From IMG/VR virus record IMGVR_UViG_3300010883_025067, positions 11,870 through 75,869 of that record: a stretch of DNA of 64,000 nucleotides. One strand, given 5' to 3'. Source of the stretch: a virus. Shown here piece by piece: positions 5,454 to 25,016 of this stretch; positions within the stretch are counted from its first letter, which is position 1; every line of letters begins with the position of its first letter. A model generated the notes under the pieces. The model was not told the origin of the DNA. It saw nothing but the letters and a program-made list of their open reading frames with translations, and made no database searches. Both the position numbers and the translations under genes were made by a program.

Positions 5454-6695
5454 GTGCCTAGATTTAAGGAGATAGCCGCTTCCGACATCAGAGTGGGAGA
5501 GGATCTTTTACACCAGTTAATTGACATTCCCCAGCGATATATGTCAGGGTCAGCTTCAAGGAAAAAGCGAGCCACATTTACAACAGGTGGTATCGGACCA
5601 GGAATCACGTCCTCCCTGTTTCACACTGTTTACGATAATGATTATAGACTACAGTCTGCGAATCCTGTATTTGACATAACAGTCGGACTATTCAGCGGCA
5701 GCGACACAGTAAAAGAGTCGGCATTCGCACAAGATAGTATTGGAAAACTTGTTTTCCCGTCGCAGTCTGTGATGATGCATCAGAAAATGGATATTTACCA
5801 GCAATTTTCACAATTATTGCTAGGCAGTGCTGATAAGCCATTTTTTCTCTCTTCAAGTGGTAGACCCGACGAACCAATTGGCTCGACAGACTCGAGAGTC
5901 GATGAGGCTCTCTTCATAAGCTTTAGGCGTAGTTTTGCAAGGGACAGAATAAAAGCTGAAACCTTTGCGATGCGATTCTGGACAACAGCATCACTTCCTA
6001 ACACTTCATCTGATGACTATAATTTATTTAAAACATCTGAGACAGGTTCTACGATTTTTACCGATGTGGGTGCTAACTCTACATCAAGGACCGAATTTTC
6101 TGGCAGGGTTGGAAACATCATTAATGCAGATGCGTCCAATTCAACTGTTGGTAATTTGTTTTACCGTCAGGGTGTTGCTGTTTTGGATCTTTCTAGAATT
6201 ATGTCTGGTAGCCAGCATGTCTCAGGTGTTATTGATGCGATGAATTCAGCAAGCCCTGGAGATACAGCACCCCCAGGCACAATGATAATTGGATCATCAG
6301 GTTCTGGAAACCCAAATGCTTACTTTATTCCAGATCTGATGGTATCCGCATCGATTGATAATATTCTTGATCACATTTGCAGCTGTAGGTTTAGTTCTGG
6401 ATCTGAGACAGCAATCACATTCCAGAATACCACAGAGATAAATTCGACGCTGATTTTTTGCAGATCGACTTCTGATGAGTTTAATTATTCCACCAATCCC
6501 ACCTATGTGGACGATGATAATTCCATACAGGTTCTCGAGGCAGGATCTGAGAACATACAGCAGTCTTTTTCCTATGTGACCTCAGTTGGACTTTACGATG
6601 CACATGACAACTTGCTTGCAATTGCGAAGCTAAGTCGACCTGTGGAGAAAAATAATGAAAAAGATCTGACATTTAGAATCAGGCTTGATTTTTAG
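5454..6695 (+). CDS. Putative virion structural (tail/baseplate-associated) protein
   Basis: Ser/Thr/Gly-rich beta protein ending EFNYSTNPTY...YVTSVGLYD...LLAIAKLSRPVEK...FRIRLDF, a terminus typical of large-phage tail proteins; preceded by ATATTTA. Confidence 0.6.
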   Translation: MPRFKEIAASDIRVGEDLLHQLIDIPQRYMSGSASRKKRATFTTGGIGPGITSSLFHTVYDNDYRLQSANPVFDITVGLFSGSDTVKESAFAQDSIGKLVFPSQSVMMHQKMDIYQQFSQLLLGSADKPFFLSSSGRPDEPIGSTDSRVDEALFISFRRSFARDRIKAETFAMRFWTTASLPNTSSDDYNLFKTSETGSTIFTDVGANSTSRTEFSGRVGNIINADASNSTVGNLFYRQGVAVLDLSRIMSGSQHVSGVIDAMNSASPGDTAPPGTMIIGSSGSGNPNAYFIPDLMVSASIDNILDHICSCRFSSGSETAITFQNTTEINSTLIFCRSTSDEFNYSTNPTYVDDDNSIQVLEAGSENIQQSFSYVTSVGLYDAHDNLLAIAKLSRPVEKNNEKDLTFRIRLDF

Positions 6696-6758
6696 ATGAC
6701 AGCAAAAATGCTGTGGCTTCCAATAATTAATGTAGTATGAATATCACCGGAGCATCTG

Positions 6759-7046
6759 TTGGAAATTTATACTGAAGATAAGATAAGCGAGATTGTGAGT
6801 CACATCAAGCGTGAAAATATTAGTATGTCTGAAAAGCTTGATCTTTTTGTGGGCCCTTCTACAGACAAGGATAGAAGACTTGTTATAAAGCCAGGGCTCA
6901 AGATAAAACATAAGAAGTCAGGCGTCGTTTACACTGTACAAGCAATTGATCTATCTGATTTATCAAACCCAACATTGATTTGCAATCGTCCAGGGTTTGT
7001 AATGGAAATCACAAAACAGCACTTTAAAGACTATGAGAGGCAATAA
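6759..7046 (+). CDS. Hypothetical protein
   Basis: 95-aa ORF, GGAG upstream, coupled to next gene. Confidence 0.6.
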   Translation: MEIYTEDKISEIVSHIKRENISMSEKLDLFVGPSTDKDRRLVIKPGLKIKHKKSGVVYTVQAIDLSDLSNPTLICNRPGFVMEITKQHFKDYERQ

Positions 7047-7741
7047 TGTCAGACTTTACTAACAAGAATCTGCGAGACAACATACGTGAATCATTAAGAC
7101 TTGATGACAATGAAGAGCTAAATGAGGCATATGTTGCACAGCTAAAGCAGTATAGCCTGCCCACTGAGATGTTAAGCGTAGCCAACAAGAGGAATCATGT
7201 TGAGCTTTATGAGGGTTACATCGAAAACTTTAATCGTGTGAGTGCTGAGCTGGATACTGCTGATAGATCTGTAGCAAACTCTAACCACTCACAGTACAGA
7301 TCATTGAAGATTGATGAATCATACAATATGAATGCAGCATATCTTCATGAGCTTTATTTTGCTAACATTAGTGATCTCCACAGTCAGATACCAATGGATT
7401 CACTTTCATACATGAGACTTTCTCGCGATTTTGGTGGTTTTGATAAATGGCAGGAGGATTTTATCGCATGCTGCAAGGCATCAAGATGTGGATGGGCTGT
7501 GACTGTTTATAGCACATATCTTCAGAGATATATGAATTGTGTCGTTGATTTACATAGCTTGCAGATTCCAATCGGTGCGTATCCTGTTGTTGTTATGGAC
7601 GTATGGCAACATGCATATTATCGAGACTACTTGAGAGATGTGAGAACATATGTGCATGCAATGATGAAGCAACTCAATTGGACAGTTATTGAAGAGAGGT
7701 TTCGTAAAGCTGACAAAATTCAAAAGGCACTGAGGACTTAA
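7046..7741 (+). CDS. Fe/Mn superoxide dismutase family protein with N-terminal leader
   Basis: NHVELYEGY, YLHELYF, RDFGGFDKW, GWAV, MDVWQHAYY; all four metal ligands present. Confidence 0.85.
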   Translation: MSDFTNKNLRDNIRESLRLDDNEELNEAYVAQLKQYSLPTEMLSVANKRNHVELYEGYIENFNRVSAELDTADRSVANSNHSQYRSLKIDESYNMNAAYLHELYFANISDLHSQIPMDSLSYMRLSRDFGGFDKWQEDFIACCKASRCGWAVTVYSTYLQRYMNCVVDLHSLQIPIGAYPVVVMDVWQHAYYRDYLRDVRTYVHAMMKQLNWTVIEERFRKADKIQKALRT

Positions 7742-7743
7742 AA

Positions 7744-8355
7744 ATGGAAATCAATAAGAAAATGATCAGAAGACTTATTCTGGAACAGATGGAAGATATG
7801 CTATCAGCAGAGGATGAGACTGATAGAACAAGATTGGGAGTTGATTCTGTGGATGACCAGATAGATTCTTTTTTGATAAAGTTTGAGAAAGACTCAGTTT
7901 CTCCTGAGGGTGCACTTTCAGAGATGAGTGCAAGATCATTAGTAGACCTCTTGCTTGAACAAGAAGAGGAGGCTGAGGATACACCTTCTGAAGAAGAACC
8001 AGCTGAGGCAGAAGAGGCAGAAGTTCCAGAGCCTGAGGATAGCACAAAGATCGATGTGACAGAGCCTGTTGAAGAGATTCAAAAGCTTCCATTAAATATC
8101 GATGCCTTTACAAAGAGAGTTGCAAGACTTGTAATGAATAATGTTATTTTACTCGATGTGAAATCAGTTATTTTGAATCGTGCGAAAAATTATCTACTTG
8201 AGAATTATGACCAAGGCCACGTTGACCAGATGAGAGAGATCCTTGATACACAGTTTGATTTCAATCTTGAGGGAAGGGAAGACACTCCTACTGCCCCATA
8301 CGCTGTAGGTGCATATGCAGGAGGAACCGGAGGCTCGGGAGGCGGCGGCGGATAA
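7744..8355 (+). CDS. Acidic hypothetical protein, putative internal head protein
   Basis: MIRRLILEQ and LLLE motifs, Glu-rich linker. Confidence 0.55.
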   Translation: MEINKKMIRRLILEQMEDMLSAEDETDRTRLGVDSVDDQIDSFLIKFEKDSVSPEGALSEMSARSLVDLLLEQEEEAEDTPSEEEPAEAEEAEVPEPEDSTKIDVTEPVEEIQKLPLNIDAFTKRVARLVMNNVILLDVKSVILNRAKNYLLENYDQGHVDQMREILDTQFDFNLEGREDTPTAPYAVGAYAGGTGGSGGGGG

Positions 8356-8642
8356 TGTCTGATAGCTACATTGACTTTGAGACAAAAAAGACAATCCATT
8401 TCAATATCACACGTGCCACCCATGCAGAGTTAAGAATTGCCTGCTTTAAGAAAAGACTTTCTATGCAAGAGGTGTTTGAGGAAATGTCACAGAGAATAGC
8501 AGCAGGGTCACCTGATGTGATTCATATTCTTGATGATCTTTCACAGAAGAAGAGAGATAGAACAATCAGAAAGCTATCACAGACAGATGCAGAGTCTTTA
8601 TTTGACGTAATTGCGCAGGAAAGTCCACTCTCAGAAGACTAG
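8355..8642 (+). CDS. Ribbon-helix-helix-like DNA-binding protein
   Basis: KTIHFNITRATHAELRIACFKKRLSMQEVFEE: beta-strand plus two helices pattern. Confidence 0.5.
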   Translation: MSDSYIDFETKKTIHFNITRATHAELRIACFKKRLSMQEVFEEMSQRIAAGSPDVIHILDDLSQKKRDRTIRKLSQTDAESLFDVIAQESPLSED

Positions 8643-8644
8643 GA

Positions 8645-8944
8645 TTGAAGATGTTTAACAAGCTGAAAAAGTTGTTTGTTAGCTTATTTGAAAGAATTTT
8701 TACAATTTCTTCAAAGGCAGCTGAGTTAACCAAAATTGTCAATGATCTTGAGGTAAGAATTTTTAAACTTGAAGATATTGTTATGAAGCAAACATATGTT
8801 CTGACAGCCTATACTAAGATCCAAGAAGGCATAGTTGATCATATACTTGGTACAGTAACAAAAGGCCACACTAAAGACAATATATCATCGCAGAGCAGCG
8901 GAATGATAATTTTTTCTGAGGACGACGACGATCTCATAAATTAG
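8645..8944 (+). CDS. Hypothetical coiled-coil protein
   Basis: 99-aa ORF in a tight operon. Confidence 0.55.
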   Translation: MKMFNKLKKLFVSLFERIFTISSKAAELTKIVNDLEVRIFKLEDIVMKQTYVLTAYTKIQEGIVDHILGTVTKGHTKDNISSQSSGMIIFSEDDDDLIN

Positions 8945-9002
8945 ATTGGTTTAACTTTTTTAGTAGCTTGTTATAATTTGTCATGCTTTTGGAGGTGATA
9001 TT

Positions 9003-9266
9003 ATGAAAAAGCTAAAAGAACTTTTGAGCAAGTGGAAGGTGCATATCTCTGTTGTTGGGGGTGCGCTTGTGATAGCAACTGCATACGGTCAGTGTACTGT
9101 TGAGCCTGATCTTGATGTACTAGAGGAATCGGCAGAGGAAGCCACAGAGACAAGTGCCAGTACTGACGAGTCTACAACTGTTACAGTGTCTGATGAGACT
9201 GTTACAGCGTCTGATAATGATGCTGCTAGCGCAAGTGAAACAACTGCAGAATCTCATGACGATTAA
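9003..9266 (+). CDS. Membrane-anchored protein with acidic Ser/Thr tail
   Basis: GGAGG RBS, hydrophobic segment then Cys, low-complexity tail. Confidence 0.65.
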   Translation: MKKLKELLSKWKVHISVVGGALVIATAYGQCTVEPDLDVLEESAEEATETSASTDESTTVTVSDETVTASDNDAASASETTAESHDD

Positions 9267-10339: not shown

Positions 10340-12106
10340 ATGCGTGTCATAGTAAAGAAAGATGCTTTGGAAGAAGCACTTTTAAAGATCATAAGTGAGG
10401 ATCGAAGTCATCAATCAGCTAGAATTGATACGATTGTAGGTGCAGATGATGATGAACCTATCGAGCCAACACCGCAAATGGCTGTGCAGCTATCAGTTGA
10501 TAAGCCTCCTGTAGATGATCCAGCATATATGCCCTCAAATGTCGAGGAGCTAGGTCGTGCAGCCTCTGTTATATCTGCTGAGGTGCCTTCAGATCAAATT
10601 GAATTTTTTTATAGAAAGCTCCACAGACTTTTAGACAGTGCCCTAGACAGACATGATGCCAAAACTTACGAACAGTCTCTGTCTGAATCGAAAATTCGAG
10701 AAAGTGTTCGAATGATTCTGGAAGCCGATGACGATGATCTCGATGATATTAAGCTTGCTATAGAGGATCCTGTCTCTGAGACAGCTGATAAGATAATTGA
10801 TTACATTGTAGCCAACCCATCATTTTTTCAAGACATCATTGGTCTAGATCCTGAAACTGGTAAGCCGATGACCAGAGCTGCAGATCCACGGCTTGTGCAA
10901 CTTCGTGTTTTGAGTCAGATGCAAAAAAATTCAGTCATTCAGAATATTCTACGAAAGAGTGAGATGTCAGAAGATGAGAAGAAAAATGTTAGAGTAGCTG
11001 TTGCTAATGAAATGCTTAGATTTGCAAAACGAGAGGTTACACCAGAAGAAGTTTCTGGATATATTGAAGCAGGAAAGGCAGAGACAGCAGCCCGTATTCC
11101 AGCTAAAGAGATGGTTAAGGTAAGAAAGGAAACTGGGTTTGAAGGCCTCGAGCTTATTGCAGCGCTCAGAGATCGTGCTGATGAGATAGAAGCAATGGGA
11201 ATGGAGGATAATGCAAGCGGGCTTAGAAAACTTGCAGACGAAACTGAGCAAGAAATTACACATCCTGAGGAATCTGTTGATCCAATTGCAGCAATAGAGA
11301 AAATCAATCCGCATGAGGCAGCAAAGATTCGCAAGCAGCTAAGAGATGAAATTCTGGAAAAAGAAGGGATAGAGCTTAGGATGTCACAACAAGCATTACA
11401 AGCACTAAAGGAAAAAATTGCGGATGAGACAGGATTAAAAGTCAACAATATTCAGAATATTCTCTATGATGACCTTAAAGTATTCGGATTCAACCCAGAG
11501 GATGCTATTAAGCTAGGCTTTCCAACTGATAAAAAAATTCCAAGCACATACGATCCAATGAAGTTAATTGCGCAGAAGAAGATCGTCGGCACTGTCTATG
11601 ATCTATTCAGATCAACAATACGAGACTATATTGAGAGTATTGGGTATGATGATGAGGCTGAAGCCAGTGTCTTAGCTTCACTGCTTGATGATGATATCGC
11701 AACCTTTCCTGGAGATGGAATCGACGGATATGTGAAGGTTCAGAACACAGCTATTACTCATAGAGATATGGATCCTGATTCACAGCAATACCTTAGTGTT
11801 AGAAATTCATTTGAAGCTGTTGTGGCATTTATTCAGGGCGTCGCAAAGGCCATCCTCGATCCTGAAAAAACAAAGGGTGCTAAAGAGGGAGGAGTCAGAG
11901 CGTTTATGCAACAGATGAACACAGATGGTGCATTTCGTCGCCAGTCATCAGATGAAGTGTTAACAACAAGGAATTTTGAACAGTACATGAATGGTTTGAT
12001 CGATAACATTCAGAATGTCATTTTGGATGAGAATATAGCATATAATATTCTTGAAAAGGCACTGAAGACTGCTCCTAAAAGAACTAAAAAGTTTTTAAGG
12101 AAATAA
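10340..12106 (+). CDS. Large acidic helical protein, putative internal virion protein
   Basis: 588 aa; LLKIISE and KIRESVRMILE motifs; ATATTTA and GAGGAG upstream. Confidence 0.55.
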   Translation: MRVIVKKDALEEALLKIISEDRSHQSARIDTIVGADDDEPIEPTPQMAVQLSVDKPPVDDPAYMPSNVEELGRAASVISAEVPSDQIEFFYRKLHRLLDSALDRHDAKTYEQSLSESKIRESVRMILEADDDDLDDIKLAIEDPVSETADKIIDYIVANPSFFQDIIGLDPETGKPMTRAADPRLVQLRVLSQMQKNSVIQNILRKSEMSEDEKKNVRVAVANEMLRFAKREVTPEEVSGYIEAGKAETAARIPAKEMVKVRKETGFEGLELIAALRDRADEIEAMGMEDNASGLRKLADETEQEITHPEESVDPIAAIEKINPHEAAKIRKQLRDEILEKEGIELRMSQQALQALKEKIADETGLKVNNIQNILYDDLKVFGFNPEDAIKLGFPTDKKIPSTYDPMKLIAQKKIVGTVYDLFRSTIRDYIESIGYDDEAEASVLASLLDDDIATFPGDGIDGYVKVQNTAITHRDMDPDSQQYLSVRNSFEAVVAFIQGVAKAILDPEKTKGAKEGGVRAFMQQMNTDGAFRRQSSDEVLTTRNFEQYMNGLIDNIQNVILDENIAYNILEKALKTAPKRTKKFLRK

Positions 12107-12890: not shown

Positions 12891-13040
12891 ATGAGTAAAG
12901 AATTTGAATTTGAAAAGTTTATGGATGATATCTGCAAAAAAGAATCAGTGACTAATAGTGAAAATCAGGTGCAGGAAGATGAATCTCCTCAAAGAAATTA
13001 TCGTAAGCTATACCGAGAGCTGTGGCAAAATAGAATTTGA
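12891..13040 (+). CDS. Small hypothetical protein (not in ORF track)
   Basis: GAGG RBS, MSKEFEFEKFMDDI..., 49 aa, after ATAATTA. Confidence 0.55.
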   Translation: MSKEFEFEKFMDDICKKESVTNSENQVQEDESPQRNYRKLYRELWQNRI

Positions 13041-13054
13041 TACGGAGAAAAGAA

Positions 13055-13774
13055 ATGAGCGATATAAGACTTGATAGTGCCAGAGATGTAGAGCTATTCC
13101 TTAAAATCTTAGCTGAGGAGAGTGTCAGGGAGGCACAACGATCAGTCTCGTCTATTGACCCGATGCAGAGTCAAATTGAAAAACAGGTGAAGCAGGACAA
13201 ATCAATCTATGATCTAAGAGAGCAAGATGGACCGCCATCGGGTGAAGATGAGGTAGCAAAACCTGCTGAGGATTCTGAGGCTGGGGCAGAAGCTGAGACT
13301 GAGACAGGGGAAGACGATTCTGGAGAGGGTCTTGAGGTTTCACTTGACAGTGTTGCAGACAGCATCAAGACACTGCGAAGCGGTCGATCTGTTGATGACA
13401 GAGAAATTAAGGCACAGATGCGTGCCTATTTTGATAGACTAGATGCACCAGAAAGACAGGCGCTGCAGGCCTTTATGGGAGCATTTGCAAAAATTTTAAC
13501 AAGTAACGTCACTGGAGCAGATGCGCAGGATCCAAGTGATCCACCTTTGAATATAGCCATGTCTGGTGATGAGCCCGAACCTCAAGGCACTAAGGCAGCA
13601 GCACAGGAAGAAGAGCCAGTAGCTACCGAACCTACTGAAGAGGAAGAAGAGGAAGAAGAGGAAGATGAGAAAAAGGGTGCTGAGGACACCACACCCCCAG
13701 TCCCAATTACTCCTGGTGGACCCCAGCGTGTTGCTGAGATTAGAAGACGCGTTCAAAAGCTAATGATCAGATAA
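13055..13774 (+). CDS. Acidic hypothetical protein, putative head/scaffold-like
   Basis: FLKILAEE, poly-Glu tract, GGAG RBS. Confidence 0.55.
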   Translation: MSDIRLDSARDVELFLKILAEESVREAQRSVSSIDPMQSQIEKQVKQDKSIYDLREQDGPPSGEDEVAKPAEDSEAGAEAETETGEDDSGEGLEVSLDSVADSIKTLRSGRSVDDREIKAQMRAYFDRLDAPERQALQAFMGAFAKILTSNVTGADAQDPSDPPLNIAMSGDEPEPQGTKAAAQEEEPVATEPTEEEEEEEEEDEKKGAEDTTPPVPITPGGPQRVAEIRRRVQKLMIR

Positions 13775-13776
13775 TC

Positions 13777-13805
13777 ATGTAATTTTCTCTTTTTTGTGGT
13801 ATGAT
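13777..13805 (+). promoter_or_regulatory. Class-1 promoter
   Basis: atgtaa-N17-tatgat. Confidence 0.65.
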
Positions 13806-14086: not shown

Positions 14087-15367
14087 ATGAGATCAGAAGA
14101 GCTTCTTAGACTGCTTATTCGTGAATCTGTATTTAGACTTTATGATGGAACAGAAACAGAGTATGGCTCGTCGAGTCATGTCGAAGACCTTGATAGAATA
14201 GTCAACGAGCTTCAGCACTTAAAAAAGACACTTAAGCGTGGTTCAAGAAGACTACAAAATAGAAAAGAAATACACAGGATCCAAAGCTCAATAGAGGCAA
14301 TTCGATATCTAAGAAATGGTGTCAAAAGATTTGGAATTAGGAGTGGTTTGATCGCTGAGGGAGGATTAAAGATTCCCGGCGGTTCCGATAAAAAGTTAAA
14401 TCCCACACTAGTGGGTCAGGCAATAAAGGTGTATGAGAATCTCTTGGGACAGTGGAATTCATATCTTGAGCTAGCAGGTCATGACCCTGTTAAGCCAATC
14501 AAGCCCGTAGGGTCTGTAAGCTACTATTCACAGGACGCTTTAGAAAATCCCGACGCTGAATATGGAGACATTGATTACCTTGTAGAACTGCCAGTTATGC
14601 ATCAGGAGAGTTCGGACGAGAAAAGTAAGAGACAAATTGAGAATGCAATTAAGCGGGAATATGAGCAGTTGTTTGTCAATTTTTTGAATGCTGTTAAACC
14701 TGCTGAAGTTGACATAGAGCTTACATTAAAGCCAAGTGCTATTGGCAGTAAGGTCCCATCTAGTCCCTATATGGTCATTATTACATTGCCAGGTGGTGAG
14801 TCAGTTCAGGTAGACACAGTCACGACTTATCCGAGAAGTGCAGAGTGGATGGGAGGCAGGTATACACCAGAGCGTGGTGTCAAGGGATACCTGATAGGAA
14901 ACATATATAAGTCTCTTGGTGACCATCTGGTGATGTCTATCGGTACCCAGGGGGTGGCAATTAAGTCTAGGGAGGGAAAGAGAGTACCTGCTAAGTTTCA
15001 AAAAGGTGTCAAGGTTGAAAATATAAGCACAGATATCGGTAATTTTCTGGTAGATATTGCTGCTTACCTTGTGGGAGATAATCTAGATCCTCATCCGCTT
15101 TTGGTTGGAAATCCTGGTGTTGACAAAGACAGTGTATCCATGAGATCTCTTGTGAAGGGAATAAAGGGATTAGCTCTGACTCTTGAAGCTGGAGGAGATT
15201 ATGACGCGCTGGGTATGATGAATGCCATCAAGGCATACTATGAGGAAAATCTTAGAAGCAATGTAGAGCAGAAAAAAACCAGAGGCTTAAATGAGAAAGA
15301 CTACCAGAAGCTATTAAAGATGAATGATGTTGCTGTTAAAATGATGTCGGAGGAGTTTGGTCTCTAA
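14087..15367 (+). CDS. Pol-beta superfamily nucleotidyltransferase with N-terminal leader
   Basis: PVGS...GDIDYLV...VQVD catalytic Asp pattern; leader LLRLLIRES...LIAE/GG. Confidence 0.7.
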   Translation: MRSEELLRLLIRESVFRLYDGTETEYGSSSHVEDLDRIVNELQHLKKTLKRGSRRLQNRKEIHRIQSSIEAIRYLRNGVKRFGIRSGLIAEGGLKIPGGSDKKLNPTLVGQAIKVYENLLGQWNSYLELAGHDPVKPIKPVGSVSYYSQDALENPDAEYGDIDYLVELPVMHQESSDEKSKRQIENAIKREYEQLFVNFLNAVKPAEVDIELTLKPSAIGSKVPSSPYMVIITLPGGESVQVDTVTTYPRSAEWMGGRYTPERGVKGYLIGNIYKSLGDHLVMSIGTQGVAIKSREGKRVPAKFQKGVKVENISTDIGNFLVDIAAYLVGDNLDPHPLLVGNPGVDKDSVSMRSLVKGIKGLALTLEAGGDYDALGMMNAIKAYYEENLRSNVEQKKTRGLNEKDYQKLLKMNDVAVKMMSEEFGL

Positions 15368-16014
15368 TGGACTTTTTCACATCAGACTTACATTTTGGAC
15401 ATAGAAATATTATCAAGCATTGTGATCGACCCTTTTCGAATGTTGATGAGATGAATAGTGCCCTGATTAACAACTGGAATAGCATGGTCAACAACGATGA
15501 TCGAGTAATAGTTGTGGGTGACATGTTTTTGTGTGGCAAAGAAATAATGCCTGAGATAATGTCACAACTAAATGGTTATAAGATTCTTGTAAAGGGAAAT
15601 CATGATCTGAGTCTCAAGAAGATGAAGGAGATTGGATTTGATGAGTGTCATAGAAAAATGAGTTATACACTGCCTGGCGGTCAAAGAGCGCTTGTGCAAC
15701 ATCACCCGATACCCGAGAAGCTGCTTAGCGATCATGATCTCTTGATTCATGGACACATTCATATATCACCAAAGGTCAGAGGTAAGAGAATCAATGTCAG
15801 CTGTGACATTTGGGATTTTTCACCAATTCAGGTCAACAGACTGTGTGGTCTAGTCTCGACAAAAAAGAGTGAAGTGTCAAGTGAATGGTGTGATATCCGT
15901 CTGGATGGCGAAAACCTTCTGATACACTTGTCAATTAACATGCAAGATTTTCCCGGTGCTGTTGAGGAAATATATAAAGTGATGCAAGGTCATTGGCCGA
16001 GGAGAAGAGAATGA
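15367..16014 (+). CDS. Calcineurin-like metallophosphoesterase
   Basis: TSDLHFGH, VGD, KGNHD, HGHIH. Confidence 0.92.
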   Translation: MDFFTSDLHFGHRNIIKHCDRPFSNVDEMNSALINNWNSMVNNDDRVIVVGDMFLCGKEIMPEIMSQLNGYKILVKGNHDLSLKKMKEIGFDECHRKMSYTLPGGQRALVQHHPIPEKLLSDHDLLIHGHIHISPKVRGKRINVSCDIWDFSPIQVNRLCGLVSTKKSEVSSEWCDIRLDGENLLIHLSINMQDFPGAVEEIYKVMQGHWPRRRE

Positions 16015-19000
16015 AGCTTGGGCTTTACGGGGGAGGATTCAAACCCTTTACAACTGGGCATTTTGCAAGGTTGGCTGACGCGATACATGATAATGACAAG
16101 GTGTACTTATTTTACGGTATGCAGCAAGTAGAGCCAGCTAGGTATGGGAAGAAAGGCCAGCAGCTAAAATCGAAACAGAAGTTCAGAGATATTGGAAAAA
16201 CCGGAAGAATGTATGATGAGAAAGTTGCTGAGTCTATCTTTCAAATATACAAGACTGCTCTTGAGAGAATCCCAGAAGTCGAGGTGATTCTGGTACAAAG
16301 TCAGGCTAGGGACGAACAAGGAAATCTCGCTGCAGTTCGAGCACCTGTAACAGCGATATTCAAGAATCTTGAGGAGTTTGTTAAGAATCCCGACATGTAT
16401 GAAAAGGTTACTATCTATGGAGATAAATCCTCGATGGCACCGTACATGAAAAGTCCAAAGTTTAAAGACCTTGTGAGAGTGGGAAAGCTCCAATTCGGTG
16501 GTGCTATTCCTGAAAATCCAGAAGATTACCTGGATCCGGACAGGCTAGATAGACTAATGACTCGCGGCGAAGAAGAAGCCCGTGACGCACTAAAGGGATA
16601 TTATGCAGACTTAGAGGGAGAAGATAGAAAGGAACTATCAGATGAGGATATCACACAGCTACAATCTGTCAGAGGTACTCGAGTTAGAGATCTTGCAGCT
16701 TCTCCAGAGACAACAGAAGAAGCTAAGCGCTACCTTCCTCCTTTTCTTAACAGTGATGAAAAGGACAAGATCATTCAAATTCTTCTGGGTAGCATAGATG
16801 AGTCACTTATAAAGCCAGCAATTTCAGAAGCTGTTGTAAAAAGAGCAGCAACAAAGTTTTCTGCTATAAGGTTGCTATCAGAGCAAGATGATAAAAGTGC
16901 TGTTGGGCCTGGTGAGGAAGCACACATATACAATCTGTATGAGGAGCTGGGAATGCCCCTCAAGGACATCATTGAGATAGGTCATTTAGGATTGAAAGGA
17001 AAGCTAGAGAATGTTCAGGAGAAAATGGACGGTCAGTTTCTGGCATTCACAGTTGTCGATGGTCAGCTAAGATTTTTCACCAAGATGGATCTTCAGAGTC
17101 AGAGGGCAAAGGATAAGCGGCTAGAGTCGATTCGAGCAGGCGGACCCGGCGGAGGCATGACTTTAGATCAGATCATGTCTGCTTATACAGGAGATAGATC
17201 AAATATCGCAGATGGATTTGCAATCGCTTATGAGGCATTGGAGCCTGTAGCACTACCATATCAGGATTCACTCTTCAGAAATGGAGAGGTTGTGATGGCA
17301 TCACAGATAATGGTATCAAAGAACCCTAACACAATTCTATATAACAAGGACTCTCTAAGGACAGTCCTTGCTATCTCTTTAACAGGTGAGCCTGTTAATC
17401 AAGATGCACTGTCATCCTTTAAGTCAGAGATGCGTGATTCCTCGACGGATGCTTTTACCATGGACGAGGTACCCACAGCCTCTCTTATGAAAGGGCTTGA
17501 CGAGGATGATAGTGAGCTTGAGCAATTAGAGAAAGATCTAGAGTCAGTTGTTGCAGAGGTGGGACTTTCAATTAGTAATAATACAGTTGGTGATTACGTC
17601 AATGCGAGATTAGAGGAGTTCATCAGGGAGAAATATGAGTTTATTCCCGATGACTTTGTCCCTGGAGTCGCTGACAGATTTATGACAGGAAAGGGAAGAA
17701 TTGCCCTACAGCTTAAGAAGGTAGTATCACCTGAAGAGTACCAGCGCTTCCGATCGCTTGATAGTGTGAAGACCAGAGTGGTACAAGAGGCAATTGTTCC
17801 ACTTGAGAACATTATTCAGAGGCTGGGCATCATGATTATTGATAAGCTCGATCTCGCCCTTCAGGCTAGTAATCAGGAAGATCTGCTAGGATTTGTTAAA
17901 GACGTTAGGGGTGAATTTGAATCTGGGTTTAATTTTGGTTTGGGATCTGAAGATGAGAAGACGTTAGAGGGGATTCGTGTAGCCTTGGCGAGACTTGAGG
18001 CCAATGAAGATTTATTTACTCGCGCCACAGAAGGTATCGTCTTTACACACAACAATAAGACATATAAGCTAACCGGTCTTTTTACACCCATTAATAGATT
18101 GCGTGGATTCTTCTCATACGGCAAGGCAAAAATGCCAGACCGAGGAGAAAGTAAAGATCTAAGTGAAACAGTAAGCAAAATTTTAATGAAGATTCTTTCC
18201 GAAGGAGGAAAGGCCTTTAAGCATAAGGATGAGCAGGGAAATGAGATTGTTGCAACATCTGAAGATAGTATATCTAGACAGCAGGCTGACCGGATAATAC
18301 AAGATCTTGAGAAGAATCTACTGGAGCCATTGGGCATCAAGTTTTTACCTGTAGGTAGTACAGCAACTGACAAGCAGATGATAGGTGACATCGATCTTGT
18401 TGTCAGTGAACCTGATAAGGGGACACTATACCAGAAAATGTTGAGTGCTGCATATCTCAGTGATGAACTTGTCGAAGGTGTGCCACGCGTTCTAAAGGTC
18501 GGTCAACTTGTTGCTATCATGGTTAAGGATGCAGAGACAGGGCAATTATTTCAGGTTGATCTGTTTCCAAGTTCTAACATGGACGATACATCCTGGGAAC
18601 TCTCGGGAGGAGGAGAAGGCAAGGTTAAGGGTGAGTATCATAAGCTAATGATTTCTCTTCTTGCTAAAATAAAAGGTGAGAGAGAATCAACACCAGACAG
18701 GGTTGTTAAGTACACAGTAGCTTTTCCGGGCGGCTTACGTGAAAAAGTTAATGACATCGAAGATGAGTCAGGAAGGATAGCTGATCCTGATGATTATCTG
18801 CCTAAGCTGGGTGTGCAGGTAGAAGATAAGCATTCTGTTAAAATCTTTGAGGATCTCGTGTCTCACATGGTGGAGGCGGATACATCTGAATTTAGAGAAG
18901 CCTTAGAGAGATTTGAGGAGTATATTGGGAATAGATTAAATGCCAAGTCAGAGAAGATAAAGGGCGAGGCCCAGAAGACTCTTGATGTGATCAATGTTGC

Positions 19001-20312
19001 ATTTTTTAAAACCGCACCAGAAAGTGAATTAGCTGAGTTGCACTTTAGACAGAATGTTAGAGCGCTGCTATATGAGAATTCTGAAGCATATGAGAGCGCG
19101 AAATCATTCACTGAAAAGTCAAGAATCATCTTTAACATGTTTAAATCACCTGATTTTTTCGGAAGTGACATACAGAAAATAATCAATGTGTCAGGTGCAA
19201 ATAAGTTAGTCAGACTTGGCTTGGCACCAGGTGCAGATGATCGTCATGATATCAGTAAGATATTAAATCTTATGTATGATAGCTTATCACCTGATCGTAC
19301 GAGGGGTATCATCGAGCTTGCACCTGATGAGCATCCTAATCCCAGTAGCAAGTATCTCGCATATGTCATGCCTGATCTCGATGATCTCATGGTGATTTTT
19401 GGAATAGCCGGTGTCACCGGCGGCCAGCGCAAGGCTGGATATGTGTATGAGATCGATGTGGGTGAGAATCTTAAAGCAGCGGGAATCCAAGCACGAAGCG
19501 GAAAGGATAACTCTGTATCTGATGTCTATGTGCCCATGGTCAGCGGAATGCTTGGTATCGAGGTCAAGTTACCAAATGCTCAAGCTGGAGAGCCCACATT
19601 AAAGTATGACTTTGACAAGGGTGAATTCTTTGCTTCAAACCCTAAGCCGCAAAATCAGGATATTGCAGATCTTATAAATATGGATCCAACAGCACTTGAG
19701 GTGAATAGACGTCTGACACTTGTGAGAGATGTGATAAATGACTATCGGGCTGAGAATGACCTTCCTGAGATAGAGAGCATACTCGCTAAGATAAGCAAAA
19801 AGGAGTACAGGGATGTGGTGTTACCCGCTCTTCGAAGCAAGGGAGAGAATATTTCAGGTGCGTTGCTTGCTGTTTACACTGTTTCAGCAGATATACTTCG
19901 GAAATATTACATGCTTAAAAAAGCAGGTGTAGTCCAGGTGAAGGGAAAGGGATTATTTCACCTGCACCCAGACTTCAAGATAACGTTAACAGATGAGAGC
20001 GGCAACAGTAGATCATCAGAGTTTTTTGACTTCTCACCTGCGCAGGGTGCAGTTTACTTTAGAAATTTCAGAGGTGGGAACTATGGGATTAGATCGCAGC
20101 TCAAAAATTCACCACTGCGGAGATTAAAACAGTCTGGTATTGATCTTGATGCAGAGAGGGATCGCGATGAGTTTGCTAAGCTCGTGTCAACTTTAAATCT
20201 TCCAGATCCAATGTCAGTCGCTGCTGAGAGCTCTTCTGAGCCTACAAATGAGACTGCAATTGTGGCTCGGGCACTAAAGAGCTTAATTTTAAGGTACAAT
20301 GGAAGAGTCTGA
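16011..20312 (+). CDS. Multidomain polyprotein: HIGH-type cytidylyltransferase-like, ligase-like (DUF6267-like), Pol-beta NTase and PD-(D/E)xK nuclease-like domains
   Basis: GGGFKPFTTGH; EKMDGQ...EGIVF...YKL; VGST...GDIDLVV...FQVD; YE...SDVYV...IEVK; ATGA overlap with upstream gene gives start 16011. Confidence 0.7.
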   Translation: MKLGLYGGGFKPFTTGHFARLADAIHDNDKVYLFYGMQQVEPARYGKKGQQLKSKQKFRDIGKTGRMYDEKVAESIFQIYKTALERIPEVEVILVQSQARDEQGNLAAVRAPVTAIFKNLEEFVKNPDMYEKVTIYGDKSSMAPYMKSPKFKDLVRVGKLQFGGAIPENPEDYLDPDRLDRLMTRGEEEARDALKGYYADLEGEDRKELSDEDITQLQSVRGTRVRDLAASPETTEEAKRYLPPFLNSDEKDKIIQILLGSIDESLIKPAISEAVVKRAATKFSAIRLLSEQDDKSAVGPGEEAHIYNLYEELGMPLKDIIEIGHLGLKGKLENVQEKMDGQFLAFTVVDGQLRFFTKMDLQSQRAKDKRLESIRAGGPGGGMTLDQIMSAYTGDRSNIADGFAIAYEALEPVALPYQDSLFRNGEVVMASQIMVSKNPNTILYNKDSLRTVLAISLTGEPVNQDALSSFKSEMRDSSTDAFTMDEVPTASLMKGLDEDDSELEQLEKDLESVVAEVGLSISNNTVGDYVNARLEEFIREKYEFIPDDFVPGVADRFMTGKGRIALQLKKVVSPEEYQRFRSLDSVKTRVVQEAIVPLENIIQRLGIMIIDKLDLALQASNQEDLLGFVKDVRGEFESGFNFGLGSEDEKTLEGIRVALARLEANEDLFTRATEGIVFTHNNKTYKLTGLFTPINRLRGFFSYGKAKMPDRGESKDLSETVSKILMKILSEGGKAFKHKDEQGNEIVATSEDSISRQQADRIIQDLEKNLLEPLGIKFLPVGSTATDKQMIGDIDLVVSEPDKGTLYQKMLSAAYLSDELVEGVPRVLKVGQLVAIMVKDAETGQLFQVDLFPSSNMDDTSWELSGGGEGKVKGEYHKLMISLLAKIKGERESTPDRVVKYTVAFPGGLREKVNDIEDESGRIADPDDYLPKLGVQVEDKHSVKIFEDLVSHMVEADTSEFREALERFEEYIGNRLNAKSEKIKGEAQKTLDVINVAFFKTAPESELAELHFRQNVRALLYENSEAYESAKSFTEKSRIIFNMFKSPDFFGSDIQKIINVSGANKLVRLGLAPGADDRHDISKILNLMYDSLSPDRTRGIIELAPDEHPNPSSKYLAYVMPDLDDLMVIFGIAGVTGGQRKAGYVYEIDVGENLKAAGIQARSGKDNSVSDVYVPMVSGMLGIEVKLPNAQAGEPTLKYDFDKGEFFASNPKPQNQDIADLINMDPTALEVNRRLTLVRDVINDYRAENDLPEIESILAKISKKEYRDVVLPALRSKGENISGALLAVYTVSADILRKYYMLKKAGVVQVKGKGLFHLHPDFKITLTDESGNSRSSEFFDFSPAQGAVYFRNFRGGNYGIRSQLKNSPLRRLKQSGIDLDAERDRDEFAKLVSTLNLPDPMSVAAESSSEPTNETAIVARALKSLILRYNGRV

Positions 20313-20580
20313 TCAAGGAATGAATAGAATTTTAGAGCAGTTACACTTTGTTGCATCCTATGTTGGAGATTCCGATGATTGGGTGACTGTAAAGAAGGAG
20401 ATTCTTCGAGGAATACCCTCGCCGCTGCGCAAAAGATTCTCTCGTCGTGATTCGAGAACAAAGGAGCAGTGGTTGAATAATTTTGAGAAGGAGCTAATTA
20501 TTTACTATAAGGAGCAGACAGGTGTCGACCTAAAGCTTCGTACACTTGCAGAGAGAAGGGAGATGTTTGGTGTCCTCTGA
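20299..20580 (+). CDS. Hypothetical protein
   Basis: 93-aa ORF overlapping polyprotein stop. Confidence 0.6.
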   Translation: MEESDQGMNRILEQLHFVASYVGDSDDWVTVKKEILRGIPSPLRKRFSRRDSRTKEQWLNNFEKELIIYYKEQTGVDLKLRTLAERREMFGVL

Positions 20581-22716: not shown

Positions 22717-24327
22717 ATGATGCAAAATAGCTTTAAGATTGTTAGGTTTGATATTGATGCCAGAGAGGATCTGCTACGAGGAGTTAATATTTTAGCAGAT
22801 GCTGTAAGAATAACAATGGGACCTCGTGGTCGAAATGTTGTGATTGAGCAGCCGGGACAACATCCAATTCTAACCAAGGATGGTGTTACAGTTGCAAGGG
22901 CAGTTAATCTTAGAGATTCTTTTTCAAATCTAGGCGTTCAAATGATTAAGGAGGCTGCATCACGTACTGCTGATGTTGCCGGAGATGGCACAACAACAGC
23001 AACTGTGCTATCACAGGCAATTTATGCTGAAGGTTTAAAGATGCTTGCCGCTGGCTACTCTGCATCAATTATAAAAAAAGGAATAGACTTTGCAGTTCAC
23101 CAGGTCATTGAAAACTTAAAGAATATCTCTATTCCCGCTGCGGGTGATAATGAGATCAGGCAGATTGCAACAATTTCTGCAAACGGAGAAAAAGAGATAG
23201 GTGATCTAATATGCAAGGCAATTGAGTCAGTTGGAAAAGATGGTGTTGTGACAGTTGAGGAGGCCAAGGGATTCAATAGTAGCCTAACAATCGTTGAGGG
23301 AATGCAAGTTGAAAGAGGATACCTTTCTCCTTATTTTGTAACCAACCAGGACAAGATGACAGTAGAGCTTAACGATCCGTATATTCTTCTTTGCAACAAA
23401 AAGATAGACAGCATGAAGGAGATAACATTGTTACTAGAAAAGGTTCTGAATGAACAGCGTAGCTTACTTATTGTTGCAGATGACGTCGATGGAGATGCAC
23501 TTCAAGGTCTTGTAGTTAATAAAATGAAAGGGTCACTTAGGATTTGTGCTATCCGTGCTCCAGGGTTTGGTGAATCTCGCGTAAGCATGTTGCAGGACTT
23601 AGCTGTAACATTGAATGGAAGGGTATTTACTGCAGTGTCTGGAGAATCGCTAGAAGGAGTAGAGCTTAAAGATCTTGGTGCATGTAAGAAGGTGATAATA
23701 GGAAGAGGTACTTCCGTTTTCATAGGTGGGTTAGGATCACAAGAAGCAATCAGCGCAAGAGTTCTTGAATTGCAAAGTCAGATGGAGTCTGACAATGCTG
23801 ATGATGCTGAGGTTGATGCATTGCGACTTAGAATCTCAAAGCTAAGTGGTGGTGTTGCAATTTTACGCGTGGGCGGTGCAACAGAGTCTGAGTTGCGAGA
23901 AAGAAAGGATAGAGTGGATGATGCTCTTAGTGCAACTCGAGCAGCGATGCAGGAAGGAATTGTACCTGGAGGCGGCGTTGCCCTAGTCAGAGCGTCTGAA
24001 TTCAAGCTAGACAGATCAGAGAAGCTTGATTATGAGGTTGGAACTAATGTGGTTAAAAATGCGTGTCAAGCACCGTTACGACAGATAGTGGAAAATTCAG
24101 GTGGCACACCTGATCTCGTGCTGGCAAAGATCAAAAGAATGAAGACAAATCACGGATATAACGCACTGACTGATGAATACGGTGATATGCTTGTCATGGG
24201 AATCATCGATCCTCTTAAGGTTGTTAGAGCAGCACTTGAAAATGCAGCATCTGCTGCAGGCATGATGCTAACTGTTGGATGTGCAATGATTGATGACATA
24301 AGTGAAGAACAGGGTAACGATTTCTAG
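22717..24327 (+). CDS. groEL: Chaperonin GroEL (Cpn60)
   Basis: [48 protein letters not shown]. Confidence 0.97.
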
Positions 24328-24987: not shown

Positions 24988-25016
24988 GTGTAAACTTTGC
25001 TAATGTGTAGTAATAT
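24988..25016 (+). promoter_or_regulatory. Class-1 promoter
   Basis: gtgtaa-N17-taatat. Confidence 0.7.

Follow-up and report, generated by a model that had tools for sequence, protein, structure and literature searches.

The internal proteins of phage T4 join the scaffolding core via a capsid targeting sequence, and the gp21 protease cleaves after glutamate, several cuts per propeptide being usual (PMC3012670, PMC5694885). The ejection proteins of giant phages are trimmed after glutamate by a gp21-related protease, and here too several cuts per propeptide are the rule (PMC5694885). We have analyzed a gene that may encode capsid cargo of a similar kind. It is located at positions 16011-20312 (plus strand) of a 64,000-nucleotide stretch of a viral record (IMG/VR IMGVR_UViG_3300010883_025067, positions 11,870 to 75,869 of that record), which we call the window. 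The protein of 1433 amino acids comprises four modules, predicted to be a HIGH-type nucleotidyltransferase, an RNA-ligase-like ligase, a minimal family-X polymerase and a PD-(D/E)xK nuclease, that are connected by short helical tags edged by hydrophobic-x-Glu motifs. Sites of this type are cut by T4 gp21-type prohead proteases. An earlier note on this DNA had proposed a packaged precursor that the prohead protease cuts into four enzymes. Loading of the chain into the capsid and its cleavage by the prohead protease is also the reading that we regard as the best one, with a probability of roughly 0.55.

The resemblance to the T4 internal proteins IPI-III and Alt is threefold. Cargo proteins that are otherwise unrelated share a short leader with hydrophobic-x-Glu at its end, their genes are found outside the head module, and the lineage encodes a protease of the gp21 family as well as a capsid protein of the gp23 family. 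In contrast to the T4 proteins, the tag described here, a helix of some 13-15 residues, exceeds theirs in length, is found also internally and at C-termini, and links several enzymes in one chain. The putative cargo consists of nucleic-acid enzymes of up to 1433 amino acids. Large packaged enzymes that are trimmed after glutamate, including virion RNA polymerase subunits, are found among the ejection proteins of phiKZ, 201phi2-1 and SPN3US. However, the cuts in these giant phages remove propeptides at (S/A/G)-x-E and are not known to separate a chain of different enzymes. Capsid-cargo polyproteins are not described in the literature searched.

The window is phage DNA with about 40% G+C and genes almost exclusively on the plus strand. 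The open frame extends from 15993 to 20312 (+). We set the start at the ATG at 16011 because the homologues begin with MKLGLYGG, so that the gene proper (16011-20312) encodes 1433 amino acids plus stop. A GAGGAG ribosome-binding site precedes this ATG, which overlaps with the stop codon of the phosphoesterase gene upstream (ATGA). We found 54 homologues with identities of 23-88%, all of them on metagenomic contigs, the largest of 280 kb. Judged by this conservation, the open reading frame (ORF) is a genuine gene. Single-protein sequence searches of Pfam and PDB gave nothing usable, and a PHROGs search with the whole protein gave only a weak NMNAT match (E 0.003). Fold assignments were made on two AlphaFold2 models, built from alignments of about 40 homologues and covering residues 1-736 (mean predicted local distance difference test, pLDDT, 83.6) and 712-1433 (84.8). 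The motifs from which the earlier note had read its four domains are all present where it had placed them. The domain calls themselves hold in broad terms, with two refinements: module 3 can be narrowed down to a family-X palm plus thumb, and an additional N-terminal subdomain is present in module 4.

Module 1 (residues 1-261, 16011-16793, +) is predicted to adopt the NMNAT/NadD/PPAT fold and carries the HIGH signature, GGGFKPFTTGH, from residue 7. The fold matches to NadD, PPAT and NMNAT reach VIA Z values of 9.7-10.4 across 150-180 residues; the Foldseek match to NadM has a value of 5e-4, and a module 1 profile run against PDB finds NadM with E 0.015. The Pfam gathering score for HIGH-type nucleotidyltransferases is not attained. 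In 18 sequences GGFKPFxxGH, G222 and R226 are near-invariant. The motif turn, the C-terminal [ST]xxR-type motif and the Rossmann-like fold of the model place module 1 in the HIGH-signature superfamily. A possible role of this module is NAD+ resynthesis or the adenylylation of another acceptor.

Module 2 (residues 297-711, 16899-18143, +) has the characteristics of an ATP-dependent polynucleotide ligase of the covalent nucleotidyltransferase superfamily. Motif I is E337-K338-x-D-G-Q (EKMDGQ, 17019), motif IV is E674-G-x-V (EGIVF, 18030) and motif V is K686. Across 40 sequences E337, K338, D340, G341, E674, G675, V677 and K686 are invariant, and by its sequence the module thus shows motifs I, IV and V of ATP-dependent RNA/DNA ligases. 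A large helical insert occupies residues ~497-665. Foldseek matches the module to T4 Rnl1/Trl1, and VIA Z values against RNA ligases are 7.7 for NgrRnl (Rnl5), 7.4 for T4 Rnl2, 7.4 for Trl1, 7.0 for REL1 and 7.0 for T4 Rnl1. The DNA ligase of African swine fever virus (ASFV) scores lower (5.7, two-domain model as query). The Z values are modest because the query was a two-domain model; on that model, module 2 appears to resemble RNA ligases more than DNA ligases. Pfam RNA_ligase is found weakly, below cut-off, in six homologues.

Module 3 (residues 732-1003, 18204-19019, +) consists of a family-X palm plus thumb, followed by a helical tail. Its signature VGST starts at residue 781 (18351) and GDIDL at residue 792 (18384); G782-S783, D793, D795 and D850 are invariant. 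VIA Z values are 11.0 for Pol beta, 10.7 for Tth PolX, 10.3 for TdT and 9.1 for ASFV PolX (159-182 residues). Foldseek matches the module to Pol lambda at 4e-6, and its profile finds Pol lambda in PDB with E 0.06. The hG[GS] motif, the three catalytic aspartates and the thumb together identify module 3 as a family X DNA polymerase. As in ASFV Pol X (159/176 residues aligned), the alignments are confined to the palm and the thumb, whereas full-size enzymes add the 8-kDa deoxyribose phosphate (dRP)-lyase domain and the fingers.

Module 4 begins with a small alpha/beta subdomain (4a, residues 1023-1136, 19077-19418, +), for which only weak, nucleotidyltransferase/GrpB-like matches were obtained (VIA Z 6-7). 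Subdomain 4b (residues 1137-1400, 19419-20210, +) is predicted to have a PD-(D/E)xK nuclease fold. The residues GYxYE (E1147), D1171 and E1184-x-K1186 are conserved to 100% in 30 sequences, the latter two within SDVYV...IEVK (residues 1170-1186, 19518-19568), and the four conserved residues sit on a beta hairpin in the model. Thus 4b contains the PD-(D/E)xK core motif, a glutamate on helix 1 followed by D and (D/E)xK. The VIA Z values of 6.2 for HhaI, 6.1 for Hjc and 5.7 for I-Ssp6803I are middling, with a two-module model as query. Since modules 2 and 4 were fold-searched as parts of two-module models, their Z-scores are probably underestimated.

The confident domains are separated by low-confidence helices at residues 262-296, 712-732 and ~1002-1021. 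Joint 1 (residues 262-296, 16794-16898, +; pLDDT <50) contains IDE at 262-264 and LSE at 289-291, the latter within LLSE (288-291, 16872-16883). In joint 2 (residues 712-731, 18144-18203, +) a low-pLDDT helix is located between LSE 717-719 and LSE 729-731; the second site, ILSE/GG, ends at residue 731 (18203) and is followed by an invariant GG-x-AF. Joint 3 (residues 1004-1022, 19020-19076, +; pLDDT 55-65) is the tag helix between LAE 1007-1009 and LYE 1020-1022, with ALLYE ending at residue 1022 (19076). Its consensus is xE-x-x-Phi-R-x-x-I/V-R-x-Phi-Phi-x-E, then an acidic run. The C-terminal tail (20211-20309, +) bears in the model a tag-like amphipathic helix (..NETAIVARALKSLILRY..), and the relatives P0021 and P0026 end in ..LRKMIREIL.

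The earlier note had drawn the domain boundaries at LxE motifs. As [LIVMF]xE is present 34 times in the protein, the mere occurrence of LxE at a boundary carries little weight. In only 6 of these 34 sites is a highly conserved motif (0.67-1.00) set between flanks of low conservation (0.38-0.58); all six lie at the three joints, in pairs: residues 262/289, 717/729 (81% and 100%) and 1007/1020 (79% and 97%). The coincidence is thus beyond chance. The domains also break there: the joints are the low-pLDDT stretches of both models, and they coincide with the breakpoints of domain shuffling in the homologues. The glutamate of the hydrophobic-x-Glu motif always lies on the cargo-facing side of the tag.

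The relatives show how modular the chain is. Module 1 is missing from most homologues, and in many homologues unrelated domains stand in for module 4 right after joint 3; for these alternative C-terminal domains, Pfam gave sub-threshold matches only. Module 1 has its own gene (270-281 amino acids) in L004-L007 and L010, where the gene for modules 2-4 starts 2 nt later with MAILITP...RF.INE. The equivalent of joint 1 in such relatives is therefore the stop/start gap plus the N-terminal leader MAILITP...INE of the downstream gene. The separate module 1 proteins carry the tag at their C-terminus (..VAE/AHLRALIRGIIRG-COOH). L012 is arranged differently, with modules 1-2 in one gene, module 3 alone in the next (225 amino acids) and then a 496-amino-acid gene with the tag at its start; a word-based search did not find free-standing module 3, yet this separate gene exists. 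An exhaustive HMMER search found free-standing module 4 proteins, 12 of which start with the tag at about residue 7, then an acidic run (for example M..NDLRLLIRNILQE plus acidic run). P0021 (residues ~480-690) and P0026 have an extra domain of about 200 amino acids, family unknown, inserted at joint 2 between ligase and Pol X. This domain is flanked by LSE and LIAE/GG, and both proteins end in the tag given above. That the domains should also be found singly, or rearranged with their linkers kept, is thereby strongly borne out. Because the joints are gene boundaries in relatives, the junction motifs are terminal tags of once-separate genes that were retained after fusion. The protein is better viewed as a fusion of neighboring tagged genes than as a dedicated polyprotein; these genes belong to a cassette that is conserved, and the phage is an uncultured, T4-related ('Far-T4') jumbo phage.

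Some homologues deviate in other ways. P0046 has, at residues 973-1034 of its alternative C-terminal module, a sub-threshold match to an ADP-ribosyltransferase exoenzyme (PF03496, E 0.004), which recalls the packaged Alt protein of T4. P0077, P0078, P0083, P0084, P0088 and P0093, a subgroup of the free-standing module 4 proteins, have a basic, cysteine-containing N-terminal domain of about 50 amino acids (MPYK..C..C..) ahead of the tag helix and the nuclease domain. In L003 (10001-14190) the chain is broken in two (951 and 445 amino acids) within the module 3 helical tail, perhaps by a frameshift or by a genuine fission.

The tag is not restricted to this gene. We built a tag profile from joint 3 of the homologues, excluding the 1433-amino-acid protein and its near relatives, with a cut-off of 10 bits. 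At or above this value scored 6/100 N-terminal windows of the other ORFs of the contig, compared to 0/361 internal windows (Fisher 9e-5). The ORFs with an N-terminal tag are those at 20546, 7744, 24371, 39015, 47611 and 52046. The enrichment is visible with the 11-mer core; a 15-mer profile gave only three extra matches on the contig. C-terminal tags are not general in the window. The earlier note had seen the same motif at the head of small putative head proteins. The N-terminal motif on other ORFs was confirmed in this way, but their identity as head proteins was not, as the contig is without a head gene.

The cassette starts with a gene for a 426-amino-acid protein (14087-15367, +) that has a tag at its N-terminus (MRSEELLRLLIRES) and a GDIDYLV motif. 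It has no match in Pfam, PHROG or PDB sequences and no BLASTP similarity to module 3, and in some relatives the gene has shrunk to one of about 100 amino acids. It is followed by the untagged gene for a calcineurin-type metallophosphoesterase (15367-16014, +; PHROG 547, 6e-47; Pfam Metallophos_2), which is translationally coupled to the gene of the four modules and lies in conserved synteny with it. This phosphoesterase is likely the end-healing partner. From their sequences and models, the nuclease, Pol X, ligase and phosphoesterase together might form a kit that cuts, heals, fills and seals broken polynucleotides, be they DNA or RNA. A promoter-like RTGYAA-N17-TANNAT sequence precedes the cassette (13777-13805, +), and the next site on the plus strand is at 24988. 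This sigma70-like element occurs 17 times, compared to 1.08 expected (window 13777-63562), and 15 of the sites are on the plus strand before genes. We saw no enrichment of the T4 late-promoter motif TATAAATA, either in the window or in the head module of the relative G001, and by eye we found no shared late motif upstream of head genes.

Similar sets of enzymes are known from other systems. The base-excision repair pair of ASFV likewise joins a palm-plus-thumb-only Pol X with a ligase and works with a nuclease, which in ASFV is an AP endonuclease. In contrast to ASFV, the ligase here is more RNA-ligase-like, the nuclease is of the PD-(D/E)xK type, a HIGH-type nucleotidyltransferase is added, and all are placed on a single chain. 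In bacterial Pnkp, RNA-ligase-like sealing goes together with a calcineurin-type phosphoesterase. The presence of an RNA-ligase-like sealer with a calcineurin-type phosphoesterase gene recalls T4 Pnkp plus Rnl1 and the bacterial Pnkp/Hen1 system. Unlike in these RNA repair systems, no kinase or methyltransferase module was found, and a family-X polymerase and a nuclease are present. The closest parallels in T4-type phages are cyanophage S-H25 and Microcystis phage Mel-JY01, in which the same enzyme families are grouped. However, S-H25 has them as separate untagged genes by replication genes, and Mel-JY01 has two modules only. The Mel-JY01 protein WWT39297 (639 amino acids) is composed of a leader (..LRLHIFSE), module 1, a joint (IIAE/GG) and module 2, and its gene lies 2.6 kb upstream of the terminase, with the head genes on the same strand.

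A prohead protease of the expected type is encoded by a close relative. Contig G001 (115 kb, CheckV completeness 38%) carries a copy of the 1433-amino-acid protein with 88% identity and encodes a Peptidase_S77 protein (PF03420, the T4 gp21 family; E 1e-26, above cut-off). The protease gene lies within a terminase-portal-protease-scaffold-capsid module. The capsid protein is a member of the gp23 family; among cultured phages, its nearest relatives are found in Mel-JY01, Flavobacterium 'immuto' phages, RM378, RsoM2USA and XacN1. The scaffold-like protein of G001 begins with MSKSLYDEAIAE/A, which closely resembles the capsid targeting sequence of T4. The protease gene is followed by a small gene with a helix plus ILQE/G at its start; the Mel-JY01 counterpart of this small gene begins with ..YQKIVQEVVREVIAE, a similar helix plus hydrophobic-x-Glu. 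A complex prediction of the G001 protease with a 60-residue joint 2 peptide scored 0.02; this result allows no verdict and is evidence in neither direction.

Taken together, these features are consistent with the following mechanism. By way of its tags, the chain would dock into the prohead's scaffolding core, a gp21-type protease would cleave on both sides of each tag, and four separate enzymes would be freed within the capsid and could enter the host along with the DNA. More tentatively, a complete break-repair kit of nuclease, family-X polymerase, ligase and NMNAT-like enzyme might be packed as one chain by means of a portable, removable tag, usable at either end or internally, and be injected so that it acts before phage gene expression. 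At this early time the enzymes might serve in repair or end-processing, or else in defense against host nucleases or NAD+ depletion.

Several observations weigh against capsid loading and cleavage. In the 1433-amino-acid protein the tags are internal and none is N-terminal. The incomplete 75.9-kb contig of the phage itself has neither a head gene nor a protease gene; the gp21-type protease is known, from its sequence, in the relative G001, and the specificity of the protease in this lineage is assumed by analogy to T4. The strict 15-mer tag profile gave no score on recognized head-module proteins. The cassette sits among chaperone and nucleotide-metabolism genes behind a sigma70-like site, and RTGYAA-N17-TANNAT is absent from the 20-kb head module of G001. 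Co-expression of the cassette with the head genes is therefore unsupported. Finally, the cultured T4-like cyanophage S-H25 has, next to its primase/helicase genes, a group of untagged genes (L024 2908-5869; MT162468.2 144717-147678) whose products are a PD-(D/E)xK-like protein, a ligase with the motif KWDG and a cytidylyltransferase. This cluster is probably a cytoplasmic counterpart of the kit, and its position by replication genes implies that such enzymes can act in the cytoplasm.

The strongest competitor builds on these last points. The protein might be a multidomain repair enzyme that is neither cut nor packaged and works in the cytoplasm, its helices being flexible linkers, or docking helices that join the proteins of the cassette (the 426-amino-acid protein, module 1, modules 2-4 and a 264-amino-acid protein). 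A promoter type common to non-structural genes and absent from the head module would fit such an enzyme, as would the untagged S-H25 counterparts next to replication genes. The tags are concentrated on adjacent genes of the cassette, and fusion of functionally linked neighbor genes is common. However, the tag is found also on unrelated small ORFs distant from the cassette (those at 7744, 24371, 39015, 47611 and 52046). Moreover, the cargo-side glutamate is kept whichever end the tag occupies, and paired sites flank the helix; a docking helix would not need these, whereas a removable tag would. We regard a purely cytoplasmic enzyme as less likely than capsid loading and cleavage, but as the main rival.

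Less probable still is that the helix is a signal unrelated to the capsid, for instance a client tag for phage chaperones (GroEL, Hsp70-like or DnaJ-like) or some other localization signal. Hsp70 prefers segments with a hydrophobic core and basic flanks, and the helix is indeed a hydrophobic core between basic residues. The contig encodes GroEL (Cpn60, 6e-66; 22717-24327), and N-termini that look DnaK-like and DnaJ-like, by eye only, lie upstream. However, a chaperone tag leaves both the invariant glutamate at the edge of the tag and the subsequent acidic run unexplained, and we regard this explanation as improbable. An assembly or sequencing artefact that joined separate genes can practically be dismissed: relatives do carry module 1 as its own gene just 2 nt upstream of the next, but the fused form is present in the independent and divergent sequences P0002, P0003, P0022, P0030/31 (41% identity), P0032-35, P0045 and P0050-52.

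If capsid loading and cleavage of the chain prove true, capsid targeting of the T4 type would be broadened in three respects: it would apply to large multi-enzyme chains as well as to small internal proteins, the tag could be placed anywhere in the chain and not just in an N-terminal leader, and the cargo would include a pre-loaded repair toolkit besides anti-restriction inhibitors. The tag plus hydrophobic-x-Glu would then be a sequence rule that predicts injected proteins of uncultured T4-related phages, and the chain would be a natural design for putting several enzymes into phage capsids. Even without packaging, the combination of Pol X, an RNA-ligase-like ligase, a PD-(D/E)xK nuclease and a HIGH-type nucleotidyltransferase would represent an uncharacterized phage repair or modification system, in a cassette that is conserved on many marine jumbo-phage contigs.

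Some further proteins near the cassette deserve mention. At 13037-13774 a 245-amino-acid acidic protein is encoded that has a tag-like C-terminus (..RVAE/IRRRVQKLMIR-COOH), as is seen in the separate module 1 proteins of the relatives. The ORFs with DnaJ-like and DnaK-like N-termini are located just upstream of the window (G000:C1 ~6150-9130). At 10340-12106 lies the gene for a 588-amino-acid acidic protein with a weak N-terminal leader (..EEALLKIISE) and a strong internal tag at residue 115 (SESKIRESVRMILE plus acidic run); judging from its sequence, it may be another multi-part tagged protein.

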